NCBI GenBank assembly: GCA_017504945.1
Contig: JAFVQJ010000014.1
Location: 6,373 to 70,372 of the forward strand
Length of the DNA: 64,000 nt
Source: Clostridia bacterium
Lineage (GTDB): Bacteria > Bacillota > Clostridia > Oscillospirales > RGIG5299
Direction of reading: 5' to 3'
Shown: in pieces, positions 1-63,445 of the stretch
Numbering within the stretch: position 1 is the first letter of the stretch
Layout of the letters: every line of letters begins with the position of its first letter
Notes under the pieces: model-generated
The model's database searches: none
What the model was told of the DNA's origin: nothing
The model's input: only the letters and a program-made list of their open reading frames with translations
Translations under genes and position numbers: made by a program

Positions 1-185
1 AGTATCACGCCAGTTCTATTCGCCTGCGGCGAGTTCTATTGCTGCGCAGTGATATTCGGCTCGCGCCGAGTGGTATTCGCTTCGCGAGTTTGAAGGCGAA
101 TAGAATATCACTGAAGCCGCAAGGCTTCAATATCACTATTGCGATAGCAATAATATCACTCTTTGCGAGAGCAAAGAATATCACT
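1..185. repeat. Linker/hairpin array 1 (truncated by window start)
   Basis: ATATCACT occurs at 105-112, 130-137, 153-160 and 178-185 (+). Its reverse-complement form occurs as AGTGATAT 48-55, AGTGGTAT 69-76 and degenerate AGTTCTAT 12-19 and 32-39. Between linkers are short hairpins with unrelated stems: 112-129 (7 bp, loop GCAA), 137-152 (6 bp, GATA), 160-177 (7 bp, GAGA), 56-69 (5 bp, TCGC), 77-87 and 20-32. A central palindrome lies at 75-101. Confidence 0.8.
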
Positions 186-242
186 AAAAAACAGAGAAGA
201 GAGAGTTTCACGGAATTTTGTAACCGTGTTACTCTCTCTTCT
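186..242 (-). terminator. Intrinsic terminator of the minus-strand isomerase/URO-D operon
   Basis: A 12-bp stem (195-206 with 231-242) encloses an inner 5-bp stem (209-213 with 224-228). On the minus strand it is followed by T6 (A-run 186-191 on plus). Confidence 0.7.
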
Positions 243-2980: not shown

Positions 2981-4738
2981 TTACGCCATGGGCAAGCCTG
3001 TCTTTGCGTTCATTATGCTGTCAAAGACAAGAGTGCTGTTGGGGAAAGCGTTTCTTATCTCGGTGGAGGAGTTGAAGCTGTAGAAGGTGTCGCCTATGAA
3101 GGAAATGTTGGTGCACAGATCTCCCGACGCCTCAACACAGCTGCCGCCGCCGAAATCACTCGAGCCCATCTGCTTATGGTTATTAAAGAGGAATGAAACG
3201 TTGTTTGCCTCGGTAAGAAGTATCTCGTAGAACTTATTTCCGACAAACTGATTTCCGACAAATGATATGCCGTTTCCTGCCGTCGCCGCATTTGCGTGAG
3301 ATCTTATTACCTTAACGCCGACGGGGTGATTGGTAATGGTGCAGTAGGAAACCGTTCCCTTGTAGCTGTCTATAAAGCACATACCCGTGCGCTGATACGC
3401 CTCGGAAACGCCGATAGAGATGTCGTGCGTATAGGACAAACCGGAGTTTGAAGCACACCAGAGGTCTTTAAGGTTAAAGTCGTAGCAGCCCTCCATATAG
3501 ATAGAGTAGTAGTTATGGCCGTAAAGAAGGTTACCACTCGTATCTACGGCATCGTAGCCGAGGTCGCAGCCGAGGGCGTTCATGGTGATGCCATGGCAGT
3601 TGTTGAAGGTGTAGTCGGTTCCGGATCCCCAAACGGACGAGCTGTTTGTAAAGGAAAGATTGCTGCTTCCGTTTGCAACCAAGAAGCTCTTGTTTCCGTT
3701 GCAAAGGCTTGAATTAAAGGTCATATTGTTGCAATTTACAAGGTTTACAAGAACGTAACAAGCGGTTGAAAAGAAATATTCAAAGCTTGAATTGCTGCAG
3801 TTTGTAAGAGCAAAACCGGTTGCAAGACCGTGGAAGGCAACAGCCGAGACCTTTACGGAGCCGTTTGTGAGAGAAACGAAGGTAGCAGTTTTGAAATGAG
3901 CTATCTGTACAACGTTCATATCGTAAATGCCGAAGGTCGTGCCGTTCCCGTTTATGTAGGTGGTTGCATCTCCGCCTAAAACGAATTCGGTGCGGTTTCT
4001 GCCGCTTCCGATAATATCAACGGGATGAGAGGAGGGGAGCGAGAGAACGGCGTTTACAAAATACTGACCTGCGCCGAAATATATTTTTGTTGCAAAGTTC
4101 ATTGCGGTCTGGATAGCCGCGCTGTCGTCGCTTGCAACACTCAAGCCGTCGTTTGCAACTGCGCCGAACCACTCGGGTCTTACTGCGAAGGAAAGCGCCG
4201 CTTCGGGATCATCGGGATCGGCGATAACGGAAAGGTTGCCAACCGCGCCCGAAAAGATGCGCTTGTTGCCCGCAATTATCTGCGAGCCGTTTTCAAAATA
4301 GAGGTAGGCGGAGTTGCCTAAAATTATTTTGCCGTTTCCTCTGAAGCAGAGGGAAACGTTTGAAGGAATAACAATACTTTCCTCTATCTTGAGCTCGGAG
4401 GAGATAACGAAGCTGCCCTTTTCGTAAACTGCCGCAAGAGCAATACCTTCTCTTAAGAGGATACTGTCGTCGGTAACGCCGTTTCCGCTCGTGTAAAGCA
4501 TTTCATCGGTAATTACCGTAACGCCTGCGGGGATCTTCGTTAAAATTTCGGAGGGAGCCGCCGTAAGCACGGGCATAGATGCGGCGATGCTGTTATAGAG
4601 CTTTATGCCCTCACTGTCGCCCTTTAAAAGCTCGATGCCGTTAACGGAGCTTGTCTGCGGTGCGCCGCAGCCTGCAAATAAGCCGAGGACGAGAACAACA
4701 GAAATTATTAAAGAAATTGCTTTTAAAATCTTTTTCAT
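2981..4738 (-). CDS. Lipoprotein with right-handed parallel beta-helix (pectate-lyase superfamily) domain
   Basis: Signal peptide with lipobox LFAGC. The RPEWFGAVANDG..DDSAAIQTA motif and repetitive N/G/S-rich beta-helix-like sequence support the domain call. Paralog of the next gene. Confidence 0.7.
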   Translation of the reverse strand: MKKILKAISLIISVVLVLGLFAGCGAPQTSSVNGIELLKGDSEGIKLYNSIAASMPVLTAAPSEILTKIPAGVTVITDEMLYTSGNGVTDDSILLREGIALAAVYEKGSFVISSELKIEESIVIPSNVSLCFRGNGKIILGNSAYLYFENGSQIIAGNKRIFSGAVGNLSVIADPDDPEAALSFAVRPEWFGAVANDGLSVASDDSAAIQTAMNFATKIYFGAGQYFVNAVLSLPSSHPVDIIGSGRNRTEFVLGGDATTYINGNGTTFGIYDMNVVQIAHFKTATFVSLTNGSVKVSAVAFHGLATGFALTNCSNSSFEYFFSTACYVLVNLVNCNNMTFNSSLCNGNKSFLVANGSSNLSFTNSSSVWGSGTDYTFNNCHGITMNALGCDLGYDAVDTSGNLLYGHNYYSIYMEGCYDFNLKDLWCASNSGLSYTHDISIGVSEAYQRTGMCFIDSYKGTVSYCTITNHPVGVKVIRSHANAATAGNGISFVGNQFVGNKFYEILLTEANNVSFLFNNHKQMGSSDFGGGSCVEASGDLCTNISFIGDTFYSFNSSTEIRNAFPNSTLVFDSIMNAKTGLPMA

Positions 4739-4752
4739 CGTATTTGCCCTCC

Positions 4753-7700
4753 TTATTCGTTGGTACCGTAGACGTTATTGCCTATCAGGCCGCTCGGATT
4801 TCCGAGATGAGCGTAAAGAGAATTGTCGGTTCCTGCGCCGTTAAAGCGGTTCTGGCAGATCATGATTCCGCTCGAGTTGCCGCCGTTCATACCGTAGCCG
4901 CAGCCCTGGAATACATTGCCTATGAATTTCGCATCGTTAAGGTCGATAAAGTCGATACCTGCGAAGCTGCAACCCTTTATGAGATTGGCGTGAACGAAGG
5001 TCGCCGATCTTGCGGCCAGACCGTTTCTGCTGAGACCTATGCCGGTGGGGAAGCCGATTATCTGGTTGTTGCTTACCGTTTCTCTGCCGGTCGAGCGCTG
5101 AAGATTTATACCGTAGACCGTTTTTGCGGTAGAGGTGCCGGTGTAGGTGATAATGTTGCTATCGATTCTTGAGTCGTAGCAGTCTATGAAATAGATGCCG
5201 CAGCCCGTTCCGACCGAGTTGAAGTTGCAGTTTGTAACGAAGGTGGTCTGGTTTTTGGTAACGAAAACACTTGCATAGGTCATTCTCAGAGTGGTACAGT
5301 TATCTATCTGAATACCGTTTGCAACGCCGTTTGTCTCAAGCTGATCGCAATGGACGAAGGTCGCAGAGTCTGCCGCATTGCAGTTTCTTATAAAGATGAA
5401 CATTGAATATGCGCCTACGTCGATACATCTGTTTACGTTGTTGAATTCGAGGTTATCGAAGCAGCAACCGCCCGCGTAGTCGAAGAAGATAGCGGTGTTA
5501 AGGTTGCTGAAGCTGCAGTTGAATACGTCAACGCGGCTTACGCCGTTGTGTATTCCGTTGTAAACGATGGCGTTGCAGGCACCGCCCGTAATGCCCTCGA
5601 AGCTTATGTTGTCGAAGCGAGCAAAGTAGGATGAGCCGGATCTGTCACCGCCGATAACGGTGGGATCGGTGCAGGTAACTATTTTGAATGCCGTTGTGTT
5701 TACACCTATTTTTATCACTGAAGTCTTATCCTCGGAATGACCGAAAACGGAAAGGTGATTGGAAACGGTTATATCGGAATTTACGTTGTAAACGCCCTCG
5801 GAAAGCAAAACGGGAATTCCGAAATAGGTTGCGGTCTTAATAGCGCTTGCGTCGCAAACGTTATCGTTTACCTTCGCGCCGAACCACTCGGGTCTTATAA
5901 AGGCAAGGTTTGCAAAATTGGTGGTGTTTGCGGTAACGTTTAAGTAAAGGACCTGATTGGTGCCCTGCGTTATAATATCCTTACAGTTGAATACGGGGGT
6001 GGTGCCGTAGAGACAGTAGAGCGACGAGGCCTCGTCAAACATAAGAGTTACGTTTGCGGGGAAGGTGACAGCTCCGTTAAGTCCGTAATAGCCACCCTTG
6101 AAATAGAAGATGTAGTCCTTGCTTGAATCGAGAGAGTTTATAAAGGAATTGAGATTCGTTACGTTGGAGGCTGCGTAGCTTCCTGCCGCTGCAGCCGAAT
6201 CGGCGGGAGTGAGCACCGTTGACATATCAATATAGTCGCTCGATGCCGTTTCACTCATAGTGGGAAGTGAAATTACGTCTGCGGGAGTGGCTGAAGAAAG
6301 ACGCTGAACATAGTTTACGCTTCTGTTTAAGGTGTTGGTGTAAATTATCTCGTCGTCCTCGTCAGAGTCGGTCTCACCCTCGTAGATGATATAGCCTACC
6401 GCGGTAAAGTTTCTCGAAAGCTTATCGCTCGGAATATCGGTAAGAACCGCGGTAAACTGGAGGAAGGCGGGATCGTTGACGTAATATTTTTCAGCAACGA
6501 TGCGAAGATAAGATCTTCCGTTTATCTTTCCGCTCTCGGTTATTTTAAGGCCGGAGGTGTCGGGAAGAAGATCGGTAGGCATTATAAGAGCGCCCGCCTC
6601 TTTAATGGTGTTGTATTTTTCATTTTTGATAAGGTTTACGAGGAAGCGAAGCCCCTGCTTTTGCTCTGCGGAGTGTGAACGGAACTGTGCGCCCACGATA
6701 AAGCCTGCGCGCTCGGCGGTATCCTTCTCTGCGGAGAATGCGGCGGCGTCAAAGCCGTTTATCTTTGAAACGGTTGCCTTCGAGCCTGCGGCAACGGTGC
6801 TCATACCCGCAAAGGTGAGGTATGCCTTACCGTTTTCGTCAACGACGGCGGAAAGGTCGAATTCCGCTACGGCTCCGTTATGTGAATAGGAGAGAGCAAC
6901 GTTGTTGAGCTTAACGGTGTATTTGCCGTTTTCGTTCTTTGTGAATTTTAACTCGCAGGTTGAGTTTTCAAGAACCTTATTTTCAAACAAAAGCTCGGAG
7001 ATGCAAGCGGAAACAACGTCGAGATAAGGGTTGTTTCCTCTGAAGGTAATTGCAAGGGTGGAGTTCTTATCTGAGTTGGGACCGTGGTTTCCGCCGATAA
7101 CGGAGGCGGTAAATGCGGTGGGCTTGGTATTCGAAAGGAAAATTCCGAAATAGCTTGCGTTGGCAACCGATGCCTTTGATGCTCTGAAGCTCAGCGTAAG
7201 ACCGTCAACGGTTACCTTGTCGGAAAGTGAGGTGCCCGCCATGGGAGTGGTGCCCTTGGAGAAATCAAACGATATCTCCTTGCCGTTGTTGGTAACGATA
7301 CCCTGATTGTCGGCATTTGAGGGAGTAAGAGAATCCACATCGATGGTCTTTACAAAGCCGTCAAAGGTTGAGAAGGGAACGCCGTTTACCTTCTTAACGG
7401 TCATATCGTAGGTTCTGTCGTTTCCGTAGGAGTCGGATGCAAAGGAGAGATAGCTGCTGCCGCTTGAGAAAATTGCGGCTGCGCCGCTCATGGTGTTGAG
7501 AAGAGTCTTGGAGCCGCCCGCCTTGGTATAGTAGACCGAAACGTCGCTTCCCGAGATCTCAAAAGAGAAGGTGACCTCGTCGGCGGGAGAGAAGGTAACA
7601 CCTGAAACGTAGGTGTTGTTAGAGGTCGAAACGCCGTTTGCGGAGGTGTAAACGACTATTTTACCGGCATCTGCGCCGGTTTTGCACATAAAGAATTTAA

Positions 7701-8190
7701 TAGAAATACCGCTGTCGTAAAAAACCTTCGAGGCGTAGCCGTGACCGGAAAGGACCGACTTATCATCCGAAAGGTTTATGCTGTGGCCGTAAACGGGAGC
7801 GGCACCGTAACCTGTGTTTGCACAGCTCTCGTTAAGCTCGCCTATGGCCGTCGTGGTGTCCAATACCATATCACCGATAAGAACGGTGGCAGTTATCGGA
7901 TTTGCTGCGGTAAACGGTATCTTTTTAGTGGTGGAAACAGCCATACCGGAATATACGTCGGAGCGGACAAGTAAGCTGCCGTCCGCAGCGATACCGTAAT
8001 CGGTCTGCACGAAAGGTCTGCCCGAAAGACTCTGCTGTGCGCAGATTCCCTTAACGTCGGACATGGGCTGAAACTCCCAACCTGCAGGCAGCTCGTTTGC
8101 CGCAGAAACGGGAGCCGTAACTACTGCGTAGGCAGAAAAAAGAAGCGCCGCCGCAATCGCCACGGAAAGAATTTTTCTGAAAGATCTCAT
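4753..8190 (-). CDS. Large secreted beta-helix protein (pectate-lyase superfamily C-terminal half, lectin-like N-terminal modules)
   Basis: 1145 aa with a signal peptide ending VSA-ANELPAGW. RPEWFGAKVNDN..DASAIKTA motif. GGAGGAG RBS and a consensus promoter lie upstream. Confidence 0.7.
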   Translation of the reverse strand: MRSFRKILSVAIAAALLFSAYAVVTAPVSAANELPAGWEFQPMSDVKGICAQQSLSGRPFVQTDYGIAADGSLLVRSDVYSGMAVSTTKKIPFTAANPITATVLIGDMVLDTTTAIGELNESCANTGYGAAPVYGHSINLSDDKSVLSGHGYASKVFYDSGISIKFFMCKTGADAGKIVVYTSANGVSTSNNTYVSGVTFSPADEVTFSFEISGSDVSVYYTKAGGSKTLLNTMSGAAAIFSSGSSYLSFASDSYGNDRTYDMTVKKVNGVPFSTFDGFVKTIDVDSLTPSNADNQGIVTNNGKEISFDFSKGTTPMAGTSLSDKVTVDGLTLSFRASKASVANASYFGIFLSNTKPTAFTASVIGGNHGPNSDKNSTLAITFRGNNPYLDVVSACISELLFENKVLENSTCELKFTKNENGKYTVKLNNVALSYSHNGAVAEFDLSAVVDENGKAYLTFAGMSTVAAGSKATVSKINGFDAAAFSAEKDTAERAGFIVGAQFRSHSAEQKQGLRFLVNLIKNEKYNTIKEAGALIMPTDLLPDTSGLKITESGKINGRSYLRIVAEKYYVNDPAFLQFTAVLTDIPSDKLSRNFTAVGYIIYEGETDSDEDDEIIYTNTLNRSVNYVQRLSSATPADVISLPTMSETASSDYIDMSTVLTPADSAAAAGSYAASNVTNLNSFINSLDSSKDYIFYFKGGYYGLNGAVTFPANVTLMFDEASSLYCLYGTTPVFNCKDIITQGTNQVLYLNVTANTTNFANLAFIRPEWFGAKVNDNVCDASAIKTATYFGIPVLLSEGVYNVNSDITVSNHLSVFGHSEDKTSVIKIGVNTTAFKIVTCTDPTVIGGDRSGSSYFARFDNISFEGITGGACNAIVYNGIHNGVSRVDVFNCSFSNLNTAIFFDYAGGCCFDNLEFNNVNRCIDVGAYSMFIFIRNCNAADSATFVHCDQLETNGVANGIQIDNCTTLRMTYASVFVTKNQTTFVTNCNFNSVGTGCGIYFIDCYDSRIDSNIITYTGTSTAKTVYGINLQRSTGRETVSNNQIIGFPTGIGLSRNGLAARSATFVHANLIKGCSFAGIDFIDLNDAKFIGNVFQGCGYGMNGGNSSGIMICQNRFNGAGTDNSLYAHLGNPSGLIGNNVYGTNE

Positions 8191-11785: not shown

Positions 11786-12547
11786 TCAGTCCTTTGATCT
11801 ATATGTGTTTTTTAGCGTTCCTATGCCCGAAACGGTAATTTCCACCGTTTCGCCGTCACGCGCCTCGCCTATTCCGGGAGGAGTACCCGTTGAAACGATA
11901 TCGCCGGGCAAAAGCGTCATAATTCCCGAGGCGAATGATACCAAGGTAGCCGCGTCCCATATCATATCGGCGGTTGTGCCGTGCTGGACGGTAACGCCGT
12001 CCTTTTTCGCGGTTATCTTAAGACTTTTGGTGTCAAGCTCCGTTTCGATAACGGGACCTAACGGGCAATAGCCGTCAAAGCCCTTGGCTCTGGTCCACTG
12101 ACCGTCCTTTTTCTGAAGGACGCGTGCGGTAACGTCGTTCAAAACGGTGTAGCCGAGAATATATTCGCCTATTTTGTCGGGCGAAACGTTTCTACATTCC
12201 TTTTTTATAACGACTGCAAGCTCTGCCTCGTAATCGGTCCTGCCTGCGCTTTTGTAGATAGGCACGTCGTCAAACGGTGCGATAACGGAGGTGGAGGGCT
12301 TAATAAAGAAAAGCGGCTCCGAGGGCTCCTTTTCCGAAAGCTCCTTGGTGTGAGCGCGGTAGTTAAGACCTGCCGCAACTATCTTGCTCGGAGCCGACGG
12401 TGCAAGCAGCTTTATCTCCGAAAGGGGAACGCTTATTCCCAGATAAACCGGGTCGCTCTCAAAGGGAGAGGAGATGACTCTGGCAACGTCGTTTTGCAAA
12501 ACGCCGTATAATATTTCGTTTTTAAATTCAAATCTTACAATTTTCAT
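11786..12547 (-). CDS. Fumarylacetoacetate hydrolase (FAH) family protein
   Basis: 253 aa. GLNYRAH, EAELAVVI and TGTPPG motifs are characteristic of the FAH family. Confidence 0.8.
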   Translation of the reverse strand: MKIVRFEFKNEILYGVLQNDVARVISSPFESDPVYLGISVPLSEIKLLAPSAPSKIVAAGLNYRAHTKELSEKEPSEPLFFIKPSTSVIAPFDDVPIYKSAGRTDYEAELAVVIKKECRNVSPDKIGEYILGYTVLNDVTARVLQKKDGQWTRAKGFDGYCPLGPVIETELDTKSLKITAKKDGVTVQHGTTADMIWDAATLVSFASGIMTLLPGDIVSTGTPPGIGEARDGETVEITVSGIGTLKNTYRSKD

Positions 12548-12556
12548 AATATAAAC

Positions 12557-12585
12557 ATTATACGATATTTCGCCGTTTATTTCAA
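12557..12585 (-). promoter_or_regulatory. Promoter placed for a leaderless or near-leaderless FAH mRNA
   Basis: On the minus strand: TTGAAA (12585-12580), 17 nt, TATAAT (12562-12557). The ATG at 12547 is only 9 nt past the -10 element and has no SD. Confidence 0.45.
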
Positions 12586-12639
12586 GTAGAAATTTTAAGG
12601 AGGCAAAAACGGCAGGGATTTTCCGCTAAAGTCGCGTGC

Positions 12640-13045
12640 CACGGCTTGCACGGATTTTAGGGGTGGGTGAGGTGCGCAACAGTTTAATTTTTTTCTTCGC
12701 TCGAGCCGTGGGGACTACCGTCCTTTTGAAACCTTGCGCATCTTTTGGAAACGCAGCAAAAGAGGGGTAGATGCAAGCGACCAGCCCTCTTTCGCCTTTT
12801 GTGTAAACTTTCCTTTCGCATAAGAAATGCATAGGAAGCTTTTGCTTCCGTATGCTTTTCGCCGAAGCGAAAGGAGCTTTTTGTTTTCCTTTCTCTCGCG
12901 AGCATAGGGGAAACCTCCCCTTAAAAAAGATTCTTTTCTCCCTTTTCTCATCTTTGAGAAAAGGGGAGCCTCGCGGCTCGAGCGGTAAAGCCCCGCGGCT
13001 TGAGCGGAGAAAAACTCCTTAACGGTCTTTTGCGGTAAAAAATTT
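12640..13045 (+). repeat. Hairpin-packed element, copy B1 (direct orientation)
   Basis: Aligns by eye in the same orientation with 14441-14850 and as reverse complement with 14100-14440. Contains hairpins 12906-12921 and 12938-12968 and GC-rich GCGGCTYGAGCGG units at 12973 and 12996. Confidence 0.7.
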
Positions 13046-13180
13046 TTCTCCGATTTTCTGTTTTGCAAAAAATTGCTCTCAAAACCGGAAAAACAGCAAT
13101 TTGTTTTCGGCTTTTTGCACAAATCGTCTGCAGATTTTTATGCAAACTGAACAAAAATGCGGCATTTATGTGAAAACTGC

Positions 13181-13209
13181 TTGATTTTTTATTTGAGCGC
13201 GCATATAAT
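13181..13209 (+). promoter_or_regulatory. Sigma-A type promoter of the 269-aa surface protein gene
   Basis: TTGATT (13181-13186), 17 nt, TATAAT (13204-13209). The 5' UTR carries a TTGCC-GCAA-GGCAA hairpin (13222-13235) and an AAAGGA RBS. Confidence 0.55.
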
Positions 13210-13254
13210 ATATATAATAAATTGCCGCAAGGCAAACAGAAAGGATAAAACACA

Positions 13255-14064
13255 ATGAAAAAGATTTTAGCAATCGCACTTACCCTTACTCTCGTGCTTG
13301 CTCTCGGTCTTTCCGCATCCGCTGCTCTTCCCGCAGGCTGGGTTACCGTAAACGGTACCACTGATGACCAGCACAAAATCAATGCAGACGGTTCTCTCTC
13401 AATGTATTGGGGCGATCCCGCTATCGGTGCAAACCTCACCGTAGGCTACGACGTTTCGGCATTTAACAACAACTACACCGCAACCGTTGAGGCTTATCTT
13501 CCCGAAAAGACCATCATAAGCGGCACTTTCGTTACCGGTGCAAACGTAGTTTCCGTTAAGGCAACCGATCCTGCAAACGGAATGTGGCTCTACGGCTACG
13601 CTCTTAAGGTAATAAATTATGAGGGTCATCCGGCAGGAACTCCCGACAACTTTGCAGCTTGGGGCGGCACCTATTGCGTTATAGAAGGCTTTGACAGCCT
13701 TAATCCTCTTGCAGCTGCTTGTGCATCTTACGCAGACCTCAACATCAAGGCAGGCGATTGGAATACCATAAAGGTTGTCGTTGAAGGCAATAAGGTTTCC
13801 TACTACGTAAACGGCGCTCTTGCAAGTACCAGTGATTCCGTAGCTTCCAGCGGTAATTTCTTCTGCCTTGCAAATAACGGCGACGGCGGAAATCCCGCAT
13901 TCAAGAACCTCGTTATCAAATCCAACAACGGCTCTGTTGCAGACGTTACCGCATTTACCGTTACCAATGCAGGCCCCGCTGACATCGAAGTAGTTGCTAT
14001 CGCAGGCGCAATGATCGTTGCTCTCATGGCAGCAGCTTTCGTTGTAAAGGCTCGCAAGGCATAA
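13255..14064 (+). CDS. Secreted, C-terminally membrane-anchored protein with concanavalin-A-like lectin/glucanase (DUF1080/LamG-like) domain
   Basis: Signal peptide (..SASA-ALPAGW). The KAGDWNTIKVVVEGNKVSYYVNGA motif resembles DUF1080. C-terminal TM helix plus KARKA tail. Own promoter and terminator. Confidence 0.65.
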   Translation: MKKILAIALTLTLVLALGLSASAALPAGWVTVNGTTDDQHKINADGSLSMYWGDPAIGANLTVGYDVSAFNNNYTATVEAYLPEKTIISGTFVTGANVVSVKATDPANGMWLYGYALKVINYEGHPAGTPDNFAAWGGTYCVIEGFDSLNPLAAACASYADLNIKAGDWNTIKVVVEGNKVSYYVNGALASTSDSVASSGNFFCLANNGDGGNPAFKNLVIKSNNGSVADVTAFTVTNAGPADIEVVAIAGAMIVALMAAAFVVKARKA

Positions 14065-14086
14065 GCTTAAATTAACAAAAATAAAA

Positions 14087-14113
14087 GATCCACCCACACG
14101 GGTGGATCTTTTT
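14087..14113 (+). terminator. Intrinsic terminator of the 269-aa gene
   Basis: GATCCACCC-ACAC-GGGTGGATC followed by T5. Confidence 0.75.
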
Positions 14114-14440
14114 CTTTTCACTACGCGTGGGGCACTACTTCGGCTCGAGCCACGGCGGCACCTTTTTCTTTCCACTGCGCGTGGGGAGCCTCTTCCCGCT
14201 CAAGCCGCGGTGGCTCCCATTTTCTCAAAGATGAGAAAATGGGGAAAAGAATCTTTTTAAGGGGAAGGCTCCCCTATGCTCGCGAGAATACAATAATCAC
14301 AATCCGCCTTACGCTTAAGCGAAATGCAAACGTCGCTTCGCGCCCTTTGCTATTTCTTATGCGTAAGGCAAGAACTCACAAAGCCAAAGGCTCTTACCTC
14401 GCTCGCATCTACCCCTCTTTTGGTGCGCGTCCACACTCGG
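14100..14440 (-). repeat. Hairpin-packed element, copy A (inverted orientation)
   Basis: Reverse-complement alignment with 12720-13015. The core 14212-14287 matches about 69 of 76 positions by hand alignment. Hairpins at 14214-14244 and 14260-14275, and two ~50-nt GC-rich units at 14105-14215. Confidence 0.7.
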
Positions 14441-14850
14441 TTTCTTGCCCGAGGGGTGAGGTGAGTGACGCAATACATTGTGTTTTGCAGAGTGTTCCTT
14501 TCGCCTTCACACCTTCGCAGGCGCAAAGCGCCAAGAGGTGTGCGAGTGAAAGGGGATTTTTGCTTTTCTTACTCTCACGAACCGAGGGGAAGCTCCCCCT
14601 CAATAAAGGATTTTCTTTTCCTGTTTCTTGTATCCTTACAAGAAACAGGCGCCCTGCGCGCAGCGGGAAAAAGGTGCCCTTTGCGGCTCGAGCGGCAAAG
14701 CCCCACGCGTAGTGGAAAAAAGGAGACCTTCGCGGCTTGAGCGGTAAAGCCCCGCGCGCAGCGGGAAAAAGGAGCCCCGCGGCTTGAGCGGCAAAGCCCC
14801 ACGCGTAGCGGAGAGAAAAAAGGCGCTACGCGGTCTTTTACGGAAACAGA
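14441..14850 (+). repeat. Hairpin-packed element, copy B2 (direct orientation, internally deleted; three ~48-nt units)
   Basis: 14445-14475 matches 12650-12682 in direct orientation. Hairpins at 14584-14601 and 14620-14649. GCGGCTYGAGCGG at 14683, 14732 and 14779. Together with copy A it forms a ~750-bp imperfect palindrome. Confidence 0.65.
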
Positions 14851-14874
14851 ATAAAACTTAATTACTCTGCACAA

Positions 14875-14910
14875 ACTAAAAAATCCCTTTGCCGAGAGCA
14901 AAGGGATTTT
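14875..14910. terminator. Bidirectional hairpin terminator (serves rnmV on the minus strand)
   Basis: AAATCCCTTTGC-CGAGA-GCAAAGGGATTT flanked by A-run and T-run. Confidence 0.7.
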
Positions 14911-14913
14911 TGA

Positions 14914-15483
14914 TTATTCAATATTGATCTTCGCCGTGTTCAGATACTTCAAAAGCGCGTTTGAGGAAAGCCGAAGCGGAAGTCCGAGCCTCTTTAGAAG
15001 CTCGTGACGGCGACATTCGCTGTTTTCTCTGCCGAAATATCCGAGCTCGTAAAGGCGCGCCTTCGTTAACGGAATAAAATCCCTTACGTCGCGCTCGCTT
15101 TCGCCCTTCGGCAAGGCGTTTAAAAGCGAATCTCTTATTATTTCGCAGTCAATGCCCTCGGCGCCGAGAAGTCCCTCCTTGCCGGGTGCGCTCTTTCGCT
15201 TTTCCTTGCCCTTTACCGACGGCAGATAGGCGTGATACACCTTGCCCTCGGTTATAGAGCCGCCGATATAGGAGCGTATCTTAAAGCCGGCGGCGTCGGG
15301 ATCGGTGAGGATTATAATTCCTCTCTCAACGGCGAGCCTTCTTATATAATCGAGAAGCTCCTTACTTTTGAAGATGCCAAAGCCGCCGCACTCGACTATA
15401 AGGGCGTCGGTAACGGCCTCGAGCTTTATTTTGTCGTATCTTCCCTCAACGACTATTGCCTGACTTATCTCAAGCCTTTGCAT
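14914..15483 (-). CDS. rnmV: Ribonuclease M5 (Toprim domain)
   Basis: 189 aa. IVVEGRYDK and TDPDAAG Toprim motifs plus the C-terminal domain typical of RNase M5. Confidence 0.75.
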   Translation of the reverse strand: MQRLEISQAIVVEGRYDKIKLEAVTDALIVECGGFGIFKSKELLDYIRRLAVERGIIILTDPDAAGFKIRSYIGGSITEGKVYHAYLPSVKGKEKRKSAPGKEGLLGAEGIDCEIIRDSLLNALPKGESERDVRDFIPLTKARLYELGYFGRENSECRRHELLKRLGLPLRLSSNALLKYLNTAKINIE

Positions 15484-16483
15484 CTCTTCTCCTTGCCGCC
15501 GCCCTGCCTATCAGCGCTTCGATACGGGCGCGCTTGTCTATTGATTTGCTTTTTATGTCGCTGTCGCACTCAACGCAGTCGGTAAGACATTCCGAAATAT
15601 AGGAAATGGGAAGATCCTTAACTACCGTCATATATTTTTTGCAGGCAAAGGGAGGGATCTTTGCAATTGCGGCTATCTTTTGAGCGTCCCTTCCCGATAC
15701 GGCGCCCGCCTTTACGGCAAGCAGCTCGGAAAAAGCGCGGTAGACCGACGCGGCGATAACGGTGTCGTCAAGCTTCATTTCGTAAAGCTCGTCGATAAGC
15801 TTAAAAGCCCTTTTGGTATCGTTTGAGATAACCGCCTCGGTAAGCTGCCAGCCCTTGCTGTCAACAGACGGGACGACCATCTCGTCTATATCCTCGCGGC
15901 GAATTTCCGTTCTGTCGCACCGCGCTATAAGCTTGTCGCACTCGTTTTTGATAAGATCCTGCACGGCGGGGAGATAGGAAACGAGAAGCTCGGCGTTTTG
16001 CCTTGAAATATTCTTTTTCGCCGCCGCGAAATAGCGGATTATCCAATCGGTCTGCTCCGCCTCCTTAAGCGGATCGAAGGAGCAGACGACGGCGCCCGTG
16101 TCCTTCTGAAAGCGAGTTACCTCGGAGGCAGTCGCCTTGACGGTGGGCTGTTCCTCGCAGATAATAACGGTGGCGCTGTCGGGCACGCCCTCCTTGGTAA
16201 GATACGCCACTATCTCGTTGGACTTTGCAAGAGAGAGGTCCTTGATAACGGTGAGCTTGCGGCTTGCGGCAAAGGGAAAGGCGGTAACCGACTCGTCAAG
16301 CTCGGCGGCGGTGAGCTTTTTGCCCTCGAATACGGTGAGATCCATCTCCTCGAAGCCGCAAAGTATCTTCCCCTTCACGAGAGAAAGATAGTGGCGCATA
16401 AGGTAGTTTTCCTCGCCCACGAAAAGATAGAGCGGGGCAAATTCACCCGTTTTTATGTGATTTTTAAGGTCATTAAGACTCAT
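15470..16483 (-). CDS. holA: DNA polymerase III delta subunit
   Basis: 337 aa with an N-terminal PLYLFVGEE motif. Conserved comEC-holA synteny. Confidence 0.75.
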   Translation of the reverse strand: MSLNDLKNHIKTGEFAPLYLFVGEENYLMRHYLSLVKGKILCGFEEMDLTVFEGKKLTAAELDESVTAFPFAASRKLTVIKDLSLAKSNEIVAYLTKEGVPDSATVIICEEQPTVKATASEVTRFQKDTGAVVCSFDPLKEAEQTDWIIRYFAAAKKNISRQNAELLVSYLPAVQDLIKNECDKLIARCDRTEIRREDIDEMVVPSVDSKGWQLTEAVISNDTKRAFKLIDELYEMKLDDTVIAASVYRAFSELLAVKAGAVSGRDAQKIAAIAKIPPFACKKYMTVVKDLPISYISECLTDCVECDSDIKSKSIDKRARIEALIGRAAARRRDAKA

Positions 16484-29390: not shown

Positions 29391-29418
29391 TGCGTACCTG
29401 CCATAGAGCAGGTACGCA
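29391..29418 (+). other. 11-bp perfect hairpin at the operon 3' end (no T-tract)
   Basis: TGCGTACCTGC-CATAGA-GCAGGTACGCA. Confidence 0.6.
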
Positions 29419-29622
29419 ACGAAATTTGCCCTTTCGGGCAAGTGAAATCGCTTTGCGGTGAAATATTTGCTCCGCAAATGTGAAATGTCCGCTTGCGCGG
29501 ACGTGGGCAAATTTCATTTCACATCGAGCAAGGCGAGATATTTCACAATGTGCGGTAGCACATTATTTCACGTTTTGCGGAAGCAAAACATTTCACTATA
29601 TGCATTTGTGTCTTCAAATGCA
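29419..29622. repeat. Linker/hairpin array 2
   Basis: GTGAAAT at 29442, 29458 and 29480 (plus CGAAAT at 29420), then the reverse complement ATTTCAC at 29516, 29540, 29565 and 29590 (spacing 24/25/25). Hairpins: 29426-29441 (loop TTTC), 29465-29479, 29487-29502 (TTGC), 29547-29564 (GGTA), 29572-29589 (GGAA) and 29601-29622. Confidence 0.8.
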
Positions 29623-62603: not shown

Positions 62604-62640
62604 AATCCCCGCCTCAAACGAGGCGGGGATTTCGTTTATT
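62604..62640 (+). terminator. Intrinsic terminator
   Basis: AATCCCCGCCTC-AAAC-GAGGCGGGGATT followed by a T-rich tail. Confidence 0.7.
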
Positions 62641-62704
62641 TGCACAAATGAAAAGGGCGGATTTTATGCACAGTGCCGAAATTTTGCCTGCCGATATAAA
62701 TTTA

Positions 62705-62733
62705 TTGACGGGCGGTGGGTAGTATGCTACAAT
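62705..62733 (+). promoter_or_regulatory. Sigma-A type promoter upstream of the 198-aa gene
   Basis: TTGACG, 17 nt, TACAAT. Leaves a ~115-nt 5' UTR. Confidence 0.45.
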
Positions 62734-62848
62734 GGAAATGGAGAAATCTTACTCAAATTTTTGAAATGGTTAAGTCCAATGGGTCGTTTGGAAAATGAAG
62801 AATAATCAATATTACAAAATTTAGTTAAAGAAAAGAGTCATAGCAAAT

Positions 62849-63445
62849 ATGAAAAAGATAATAATAAGCACGGTTTCAGCGGTACTGATACTTTTGATTC
62901 TTTTTACCGTTATTATTTTTACAAATCCCGTAAACGTTACTACGGTGAAGCTTTATATGATCTCAAAGCAAAGTTTTATTCAAAAAGAAACATTTGAAGA
63001 ATATAAACAATCACTCGATACCGTAGTCGAATTTATTGAGGGTTATCGGGATAAGGTGCCTGAAAACGGAAGAATATATTTCGGAATAGAAAGTAGTGTT
63101 TTGAAAAACAAATATATATCGCTTCGTTCAGACGAAGAAAGCATAAAAATAACGCTTACCGACGCGCAACACCAAGCTTTTACAGACGTTTCCGATTTAT
63201 TCTACGATTTCGGCGGCTACGTAGAAACAATATATTTTTACTCCGACGGAACGATATGGTTTTCAAATTTTAAATATCGTGAGGATATCGTTTATTCACC
63301 GAACAAAAGACCGAGTAAATTTCACAGCGAAAACGTAACCGGTGTGCCGGTGGTTCATAAAATGGATTCCGATTGGTATACAATATCGCTTTCGGGCAGC
63401 TTTTGGGATTTGATCAAAGCATTGGTTTCAAATACCTTTAAATAA
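62849..63445 (+). CDS. Membrane-anchored protein, unknown function
   Basis: 198 aa with an N-terminal TM helix. Confidence 0.5.
   Translation: MKKIIISTVSAVLILLILFTVIIFTNPVNVTTVKLYMISKQSFIQKETFEEYKQSLDTVVEFIEGYRDKVPENGRIYFGIESSVLKNKYISLRSDEESIKITLTDAQHQAFTDVSDLFYDFGGYVETIYFYSDGTIWFSNFKYREDIVYSPNKRPSKFHSENVTGVPVVHKMDSDWYTISLSGSFWDLIKALVSNTFK

Follow-up and report, generated by a model that had tools for sequence, protein, structure and literature searches.

In the genome of an uncultured Clostridia bacterium (Oscillospirales, RGIG5299; assembly GCA_017504945.1), three related segments packed with hairpins, here called B1, A and B2, surround a single gene, which raises the question of what kind of element they are. 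The stretch analysed comprises 64,000 nucleotides of contig JAFVQJ010000014.1 (positions 6,373 to 70,372) and is referred to below as the window; positions are those of the window unless another locus is named. A previous sequence-only reading had offered two explanations, an old insertion or inversion cassette delimited by inverted repeats, or a structured element duplicated locally. We favour, with moderate confidence, a different one, in which B1, A and B2 belong to a family of intergenic repeats that are composite, non-coding and densely folded and that occur in multiple dispersed copies in an uncultured lineage of gut Clostridia, similar in kind to BOX elements and to transposable elements of the miniature inverted-repeat type (MITEs). 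The family is previously undescribed and of a known general kind, that of the composite interspersed repeats.

Three homologous non-coding segments around one gene

The three copies are mutually homologous, non-coding and arranged in the order B1, gene, inverted A, B2. Their limits are as follows.

12615 to 13066, plus strand: copy B1, solo and full-length, B1 subtype (blastn, covariance model R1 and folding; left end from alignment to the ends of copies L097 and L098, described below)
14113 to 14433, minus strand: copy A, A subtype, 5'-truncated, with units at 14113-14209, core at 14210-14368 and 5' domain at 14369-14433 (blastn and R1)
14441 to 14850, plus strand: copy B2, B2 subtype, with a T-like motif at 14445-14475, core at 14497-14655, 3.2 units of 49 nt at 14651-14820 and 3' end at 14821-14850
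14427 to 14445, no strand: head-to-head junction of A and B2, identical in L098, in L099b and in many spurious open reading frames (ORFs)

Under sensitive scoring, blastn paired 12746-12988 with 14193-14433 in reverse complement (E 1.6e-43, 76.5% identity across 247 nt); it also paired 12866-13007 with 14545-14695 (E 2e-13, 68.6% identity across 153 nt). Repeat finding returned inverted arms at 12908-12970 and 14212-14274 that are 87% identical over 63 nt, and a degenerate 27-nt core pattern matched at B1, A and B2 alone, with 0.01 matches expected by chance. When R1, a covariance model of the 160-nt core, was run over the whole window it found three cores, at 12812-12972 (plus strand, 158 bits), 14210-14368 (minus strand, 183 bits) and 14497-14655 (plus strand, 119 bits). 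The earlier claim that three related segments bracket the gene was borne out by these searches, and its hand alignment of A to the reverse complement of B1 (about 69 of 76 core positions) is consistent with the inverted arms. Other details had to be revised. B1, first placed at 12640-13045, is a real element but extends further, from about 12615 to 13066; the match proposed between 12650-12682 and 14445-14475 is present but short and ambiguous, the start of B2 fitting 12761-12784 equally well; and A and B2 do lie head to head, but the imperfect palindrome that they were said to form is strongly imperfect, because their cores are only about 60% identical.

Dense folding of the segments, also claimed before, was upheld by the covariation described below and by fold scores, B1 yielding z = -6.0 and -7.0 against shuffles on its two strands; the covariation also indicates a structure that is kept under constraint. 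Tandem units of 49-54 nt (up to 55 nt, families D1-D3) follow on the 3' side of the cores, with one unit in B1, two in A and 3.2 in B2, where Tandem Repeats Finder reported an array at 14657-14812 (3.2 units, period 49, score 210).

ORFs of 135-157 aa run across the window copies, their frame and end differ from copy to copy, and those crossing the copies gave no Pfam hit at all, in agreement with the proposal that the element is non-coding. A protein search with the 157-aa ORF that spans A and B2 (14239-14712) retrieved 19 clusters of like spurious ORFs, again with varying frames and ends, and the junction peptide ARIYPSFGARPHSVSCPRGEVSDA of A and B2 recurs in spurious ORFs P0025-P0036. This 157-aa ORF has been called as a protein in ENA assemblies, and a 115-aa ORF at L097 1-349 is the NCBI entry 'hypothetical protein IJD95_01900'. 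For annotation this means that gene callers render the repeats as 'hypothetical proteins' of 100-220 aa, IJD95_01900 being one of the 19 clusters.

Copies at unrelated loci and copy number

Further copies were located through the 157-aa ORF (at three of its relatives' loci) and through the loci of homologues of the enclosed gene, which encodes a DUF1080 protein. With the window counted in, the element thus has five intergenic settings, unrelated to one another.

L091/L092: a short form of 190 nt, immediately behind the terminator belonging to a DUF1080 paralogue of 36% identity
L097: a copy in another metagenome-assembled genome (MAG), adjoining the glutamyl- and glutaminyl-tRNA synthetase genes
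L098: a complete composite of A+B2 type, with a cpYpsA-like gene on one side and an M24 peptidase gene on the other
L099: two copies in direct orientation, flanking a lipoprotein gene on both sides

Within the window the cores are 75% (B1-A), 60% (A-B2) and 58% (B1-B2) identical. The A core, on the other hand, is 98% identical to that of L099b and 92% to that of L098a, and the B2 core 98% identical to that of L097, in the other MAG, and 90% to that of L098b. As the closest relatives of the window copies thus sit at unrelated loci, the window copies are not local duplicates; they represent three separate subtypes, of at least three in the family, and not a duplication in place.

Read depth points the same way. 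Among metagenome contigs that matched the region at 96% likeness or better, core pieces reached 7-11 times the depth of the flanks in four of four gut metagenomes:

X2: flanks 17-20, core 147
X3: flanks 15-19, core 156-194
X4: flanks 46-49, core 444-543
X5: flanks 38-41, core 331-409

Because the ratio is the same across samples of differing abundance, the excess probably reflects extra copies in one genome. Other gut-metagenome contig comparisons gave similar depth ratios, and many element contigs continue into unrelated sequence. The family would have dispersed at the DNA level, reaching about 8-11 sites in a genome and at least one further MAG.

These results leave little room for a local triplication, or for a decayed protein-coding gene, with no wider family behind it. 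Such an origin would account for three copies inside 2.3 kb and for the ORFs of 135-157 aa across them, but the closer relatives at other loci and in another MAG, the 7-11-fold depth, the lack of Pfam hits and the unstable frames and ends of the ORFs make it highly improbable. The part of the sequence-only reading that had the element 'duplicated locally' has therefore to be given up, copies at unrelated loci being 90-98% identical against 58-75% within the window.

Several searches returned nothing. Rfam 15 was searched with 12000-15500 at E up to 10 and gave weak, terminator-like matches only, far below gathering scores. No match was obtained in phage and plasmid sequences with blastn in a distant mode (including the B1 copy that carries motif T, defined below), and pattern scans of viral contigs that included motif T did not find the element. 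The strict core pattern CTCNCGANCNNAGGGGANNCNNCCCCT gave a single chance match inside coding sequence in metagenome contigs (L083); this pattern is too strict and would miss the L091 copy. A literature search with characteristic sequence strings of the element returned no paper.

One variant of copy A was seen in another sample. At L002 11217-11510 it does not join B2 but goes on, beyond the equivalent of window position 14427, into a 5' domain of full length. The segment of about 270 nt that follows this domain is bounded by 26-nt inverted repeats, GGGGTAATAAGTGTAATTCGAGTACG ... CGTGCTCGAATTGCTCTTATTACCCC, and resembles a different, small MITE. A loose end at 14427 with the L002-type continuation was present in runs X1-X6 and X27; it would stem from a structural variant or else from another, near-identical copy at a different place in the genome. 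For assembly, the practical consequence is that the repeats interrupt contigs of this lineage, examples being the ends of L002, L095, L096 and L097.

Modular anatomy of the element

Comparison of all copies gave a common plan, in which a terminal extension with motif T is followed by a reverse unit, a 5' domain, the 160-nt core, forward units (one to more than three) and, if the copy is complete, a reverse T. The modules are therefore three: motif T, of about 35 nt, with the palindrome GGGTGCGCACCC; GC-rich units of 49 nt; and an asymmetric core of about 250 nt, 160 nt of which are conserved. The number of units in tandem varies, and as they stand in opposite orientation on the two sides of the core they form a long closing stem. 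In B1, all on the plus strand, the parts are as follows.

12615 to 12680: terminal extension with motif T (multi-copy comparison)
12646 to 12680: motif T, TTGCACGGATTTTAGGGGTGGGTGAGGTGCGCAAC, also the terminal inverted repeats of the L098 composite and the 3' end of the L097 copy
12690 to 12713: 5' arm, a unit in reverse, which forms a 24-bp closing helix with 12991-13014 (three G-U pairs on the plus strand; inverted repeats I24/I14, minimum-free-energy structure and inspection)
12812 to 12972: core, 160 nt, which holds the next four features (R1, RNAalifold and pair counts)
12812 to 12874: long hairpin Px
12895 to 12902: palindrome CTCGCGAG
12906 to 12921: hairpin Hd
12940 to 12966: hairpin He
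12967 to 13014: 3' unit, doubling as the 3' arm of the closing helix (repeat family D1)
13005 to 13066: AT-rich terminal hairpin and then a T-rich run, terminator-like on the plus strand (arms 13005-13024 and 13033-13052; inverted repeat I19; T-run by inspection)

The terminator scan did not flag the last of these; the same hairpin is also drawn in a weak Rfam alignment. The left part of B1 (12600-12720) aligned by blastn to L097 (78% over 100 nt) and to both ends of L098, and in the window motif T survives only at this left end of B1.

Head-to-head composites of A and B2, of about 700 nt, are recurrent, and their complete form is L098, which is bounded by inverted ends made of T and a unit. 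Its left end agrees with its right end at 57 of 60 nt, and the match goes on through the units at 75% over 222 nt, so that the two ends constitute long terminal inverted repeats of about 60 nt. Since the same junction occurs in the window, in L098, in L099b and in many ORFs, the composite has itself multiplied as a unit. Other forms are reduced: the 190-nt short form at L091, a truncated B2 half at L099b, internally deleted copies and a lone unit upstream of the L091 gene. Solo copies measure 190-450 nt. The rnmV locus has an orthologue in another strain (spurious ORF P0036), where the B2-type copy has fewer units and ends in motif T, and the difference in units and in the T end indicates that the ends of the element change fast.

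Dispersal, the range of subtypes, truncations, expansions and composites, the long terminal inverted repeats, the lack of coding capacity and the absence of a promoter of its own are the reasons for which we place the family among BOX/MITE-like repeats. Its spreading agent may have been an enzyme acting in trans, or recombination. The window would hold a solo B1 and a composite A+B2 that arrived independently on either side of the exported-protein gene.

Strand-specific helices and the weighing of an RNA alternative

A number of observations weigh against the placement just given. Mobility is inferred from the distribution of the copies. The element is larger than typical MITEs, and the GC content of its copies (48-56% against 47.9% for the window) departs from the AT-richness of that class. 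Neither a transposase nor a recombinase was present among the 25 window ORFs scanned, no transposase was linked to motif T in the sequences searched, and inspection of the ends of L098, L097 and B1 revealed no recognisable target-site duplication, there being no empty site for comparison. To these are added the properties of the core. RNAalifold applied to seven copies resolved a core with three solid helices and a weaker one. In the R1-guided alignment, which comprises 11 copies (10 of them distinct) from 3-4 independent lineages and was fitted to the structure, 98.1% of the cells were standard pairs and 11 of the 29 pairs had changed on both sides. Helix He alone contributed 7 covarying pairs out of 11, with 100% of its cells paired, while controls in which the partners were slid by 1-3 columns gave 0-1 covarying pairs and 41-62% paired cells. 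All 14 G-U cells fall on the B-sense strand (plus for B1 and B2, minus for A), the complement having A-C mismatches at those places, and the B-sense fold was better than that of the complement in nine of ten copies. Such a strand-specific pattern is what would be expected of a functional single-stranded RNA or single-stranded DNA, and the core is not a simple palindrome but a set of four local covarying helices. Finally, metatranscriptome contig X26 (319 nt, depth 4) runs from arm to arm across a related copy.

The alternative that draws on the core helices and on this contig is that the copies are new structured non-coding RNA genes of about 300-450 nt, transcribed in the B sense, with a closing helix around hairpins and CU-rich single strands, ended by a terminator and present as several paralogues per genome. 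In addition to the covariation, the bias of the G-U cells and of the fold, and contig X26, it would explain why a terminator or terminator-like hairpin follows every copy in the B sense and why the sequence between the helices (UCUCGCGAGCAUAGGGGA and CCCCUUAAAAAGAUUCUUUUC) is strongly conserved. We nevertheless consider it less likely than the repeat family, though a serious rival to it. For A and B2 the promoter scan gave no sigma-70-type promoter, either inside the copy or immediately before it, and by scan and inspection none is conserved among the copies, either upstream or inside. A and B2 abut head to head and so leave no room for one; truncation, internal deletion and expansion of the units are frequent among the copies; and there was no Rfam match. 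The RNA runs matched by window sequence yielded low-depth, unstranded contigs at a level like that of neighbouring mRNA, for which DNA carry-over is possible. As for the covariation, it derives from 3-4 lineages in an alignment fitted to the structure, and DNA elements that act as single-stranded hairpins would give the same pattern.

In a stronger form of this alternative, the core and closing helix would be a large structured RNA of a new class, about 300-450 nt long, or a structured single-stranded DNA. It would have about ten paralogues per genome in uncultured gut Clostridia, be read from one defined strand, and be genetically linked to genes encoding exported surface proteins, controlling how these are expressed or exchanged; the features that recall MITEs would be secondary. 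This we regard as doubtful. If stranded RNA data gave discrete transcripts, the interest of the element would rise considerably.

On balance we retain the dispersed repeat family. It is filed as a new family of the BOX/MITE-like kind and not as a proven MITE, because AT-richness and small size do not apply to it and neither a target-site duplication nor a cognate transposase was established. Should a transposase gene flanked by TTGCRCGGATTTTTGGGGTGGGTGGGRTGCGCACCC occur in a genome of this lineage, the mobilising insertion sequence (IS) would be identified.

Several other readings were rejected on their own terms. Template and variable repeats of a diversity-generating retroelement were discarded in view of the absence of a reverse transcriptase and the position of the repeats outside coding sequence; retron and CRISPR readings were rejected as well. 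A riboswitch or leader does not fit three contexts for three copies, nor the location of B1 upstream of both flanking promoters. A G-quadruplex in motif T was dismissed, as the motif has three G-tracts only.

The enclosed gene, its surroundings and the cassette alternative

The gene between B1 and A and the signals around it are as follows.

13255 to 14064, plus strand: gene for an exported, C-terminally anchored DUF1080 protein, 3-keto-disaccharide hydrolase-like and of lectin fold (Pfam PF06439, E 3.6e-9; signal peptide)
13049 to 13254, plus strand: conserved upstream region of the gene family, 70% identical to the region upstream at L091, with promoter TTGATT-17-TATAAT at 13181-13209 (10/12)
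14083 to 14112, no strand: bidirectional intrinsic terminator serving the gene (plus) and copy A (minus), from a terminator scan of both strands (13 pairs)
14879 to 14911, no strand: terminator of the rnmV-like gene (minus-strand scan, 15 pairs), with plus-strand use behind B2 by inspection (plus T-run ATTTTTGATT)

The PF06439 match, signal peptide and C-terminal membrane anchor agree with the secreted, tail-anchored, lectin-like product predicted before. It had also been noted that this gene is transcribed opposite to every neighbour from 351 to 20647, and it is indeed the sole long plus-strand ORF of that interval that is not an antisense shadow, the other real genes all lying on the minus strand. 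Among these are the FAA-hydrolase (FAH) gene at 11786-12547, whose promoter was found by promoter scan at 12585-12557 (minus strand, 11/12), and, on the other side, an rnmV-like Toprim/DUF4093 gene at 14914-15483, then holA and comEC. As B1 lies between the divergent promoters at 12585-12557 and 13181-13209, it is outside both transcription units.

The layout could suggest that the copies delimit a gene cassette that moves or recombines, in the manner of a mobile insertion cassette or a composite transposon, so that pairs of copies would bracket exported-protein genes and transfer or flip them, and that the 2.3-kb block was inserted between FAH and rnmV. B1 and A bracket the DUF1080 gene in inverted orientation, the two direct copies of L099 bracket a lipoprotein gene, and a contig of run X18 fuses a B2-type 3' end directly to 13049, the start of the upstream region of the gene family. 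Homologues of the gene stand in wholly different neighbourhoods in every genome examined, and here the gene is the only one on the plus strand in a 20-kb minus-strand block. Against this, seven of eight examined homologue loci (L084-L090 and L093) were without the element, and the elements of L097 and L098 enclose no gene. The bracketing copies differ in subtype, are 75% identical and are inverted in the window but direct at L099; B1 has no motif T on the side of the gene and A lacks it entirely; inspection revealed around the block no target-site duplication, which cassettes and composite transposons mobilised in trans would be expected to have; and no joint indicative of inversion or excision was present in eight metagenome runs. 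We therefore consider a cassette quite unlikely. The gene block may be an old insertion, as had been suggested. When the FAH protein was searched against genome contigs, the best match was 51% identical, and 0 of 80 loci lay near an rnmV, HAD, DegV or DUF1080 gene.

The inversion cassette of the sequence-only reading found no support. Invertible segments have near-identical inverted repeats and a nearby site-specific recombinase, and both orientations appear in the data. The arms are here about 76% identical, the 25 ORFs scanned include no recombinase, and contigs of the eight runs contained no joint between B1 and A, although rare forms could escape this search; on present evidence the block is accordingly not an invertible, phase-variable segment.

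In the dispersed repeat family that we favour, any local effect of the copies would most probably be exerted at the RNA level, as they are stacks of hairpins and T-runs that touch or contain intrinsic terminators and lie between convergent or divergent units. A (at 14083-14112), B2 (at 14879-14911) and the copies of L091, L097 and L098b end at bidirectional terminators of a neighbour, while B1 (13005-13066) and L099a have a terminal hairpin of their own and then a T-run. Taken in the other direction, the units amount to small GC hairpins with T-runs behind them. Both composites, that of the window and that of L098, are placed between convergent genes. A role as read-through barriers or insulators is plausible from these positions; the copies may block read-through, insulate neighbours and possibly stabilise 3' ends.

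The gene family around the element has features of its own. The DUF1080 family is mosaic: the codons of the anchor are about 93% identical in DNA between proteins whose overall identity is just 31-36%, and conservation extends to the signal peptide and to some 200 nt upstream (window 13049-13330 and 13972-14112; L091 4812-5079 and 5652-5799; L093, L094 and L086). The terminator is common to some loci (L091-L094 and L086). The depth of the anchor region was 6-7 times that of the flanks. One paralogue contig has 13094-13123 and the sequence from 13984 onward in common with the window, at single-copy depth. Such a pattern suggests gene conversion, or a swap of the middle part between fixed ends. 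The neighbourhood thereby reveals an exported DUF1080 family with near-identical DNA ends (upstream region, signal peptide, anchor and terminator) and diverging middles. At L091 3794-4699, upstream of the P0012 gene, there is a further DUF1080-like paralogue whose C-terminus differs; behind it come a similar terminator and the lone unit GCTCGAGCCGTGGGG.

Other repeats and features in the window

Tandem Repeats Finder detected an array of units of about 25 nt at window positions 7-190, each made of AATATCACT and a short hairpin. Similar arrays occur at L091 9063-9247 (82%) and L093 3218-3370 (80%); these arrays are a second family of intergenic repeats in the lineage. A non-coding segment at 62607-62813, which consists of a terminator and then a promoter-like TTGACG...TACAAT, lies upstream of an exported-protein gene starting at 62849 and is 88% identical to L091 8220-8427, downstream of fusA. 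The sole Rfam family in the window at gathering thresholds was Gut-1 RNA (RF01706) at 29417-29491 (69.3 bits, E 9e-12); a 25-nt tandem repeat at 29538-29603 adjoins it. The segment 30072-30197 resembles L087 686-810 (74%). Two minus-strand ORFs, 4753-8190 (1145 aa) and 2981-4738 (585 aa), had no Pfam match at E 1e-5.

Comparison with known systems

Two classes of palindromic DNA were considered and rejected. Integron attC sites are imperfect palindromes of 55-140 bp at the 3' end of promoterless cassettes adjoining intI. The present element measures 190-700 nt, the gene has its own promoter and no integrase was seen in the window. REP/BIME units are described as palindromes of 20-40 bp with a conserved GTAG or CGTC tag, in high copy number and associated with RAYT transposases (PMC3733652). 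The units here are 49 nt long and are not simple palindromes, GTAG is found in some and GCAG in others, and no Y1 transposase was seen in the window. Mobile insertion cassettes, one form of the cassette alternative above, comprise two inverted repeats without a transposase and at least one coding sequence between them, over 0.7-3 kb (PMC6199540). The SPRITE repeats of pneumococci are single hairpins of about 18 bp with a U-tract, resembling Rho-independent terminators, and may terminate transcription (PMC3049150). Both they and the present element are terminator-like families, but the latter is ten times larger and merely ends in, or abuts, terminators.

With the ornate RNAs ROOL, GOLLD, raiA and OLE, and with Gut-1, the element has in common a length of several hundred nucleotides, many hairpins, occurrence in gut or rumen Firmicutes and a function that is unknown. 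It differs from them in that Rfam 15 gave no match to these families by cmscan at E up to 10 and in being multi-copy, modular and often truncated. The repeats bcr1-bcr18 of the Bacillus cereus group are interspersed repeats of 100-400 bp in Firmicutes, some of them mobile and some with RNA-like structure and transcribed. Both are thus interspersed Firmicutes repeat families, although the lineage and the sequences differ. The bcr repeats have been counted among mobile elements (PMC6199540).

MITEs, among them RUP, ERIC and the Correia elements of Neisseria, are expected to be AT-rich relative to the genome and are typically under 200-300 bp. When co-transcribed, they can contain terminators, promoters or RNase targets or serve as such (PMC3049150). 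Like them, the element is non-coding, highly base-paired and dispersed intergenically, with terminal inverted repeats (57 of 60 nt at the ends of L098, and the 24-bp closing arms of B1) and multiple non-coding copies (five contexts, 7-11-fold depth and no Pfam hit). Unlike them, it is not AT-rich, reaches 190-450 nt in solo and about 700 nt in composite form, has an interior that is no simple palindrome, and no matching transposase was found for it among the 25 window ORFs scanned.

The closest architectural parallel would be the BOX elements of Streptococcus pneumoniae, although this match is one of design and not of homology. BOX elements have the form A-B(n)-C, span 67-637 bp, carry terminal inverted repeats, fold extensively, are transcribed and yield spurious ORFs (PMC3049150). 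In both families the end modules are inverted repeats, an internal tandem module varies in number, and lone or truncated modules exist; both are intergenic and multi-copy, several hundred base pairs long, with an extensive predicted fold and spurious ORFs. The differences are that the variable 49-nt units of the present element flank both sides of a large asymmetric core with four covarying helices, that it has about 10 copies per genome as against about 125 for BOX, and that it forms head-to-head composites; no cognate IS or target-site duplication is known for it, and no sequence relation to BOX was seen or expected. Set beside these systems, the element stands as an unusually large, modular bacterial interspersed repeat with strand-specific covariation of its helices, and offers a test case for distinguishing selfish DNA from a regulator or insulator that acts at the RNA level.

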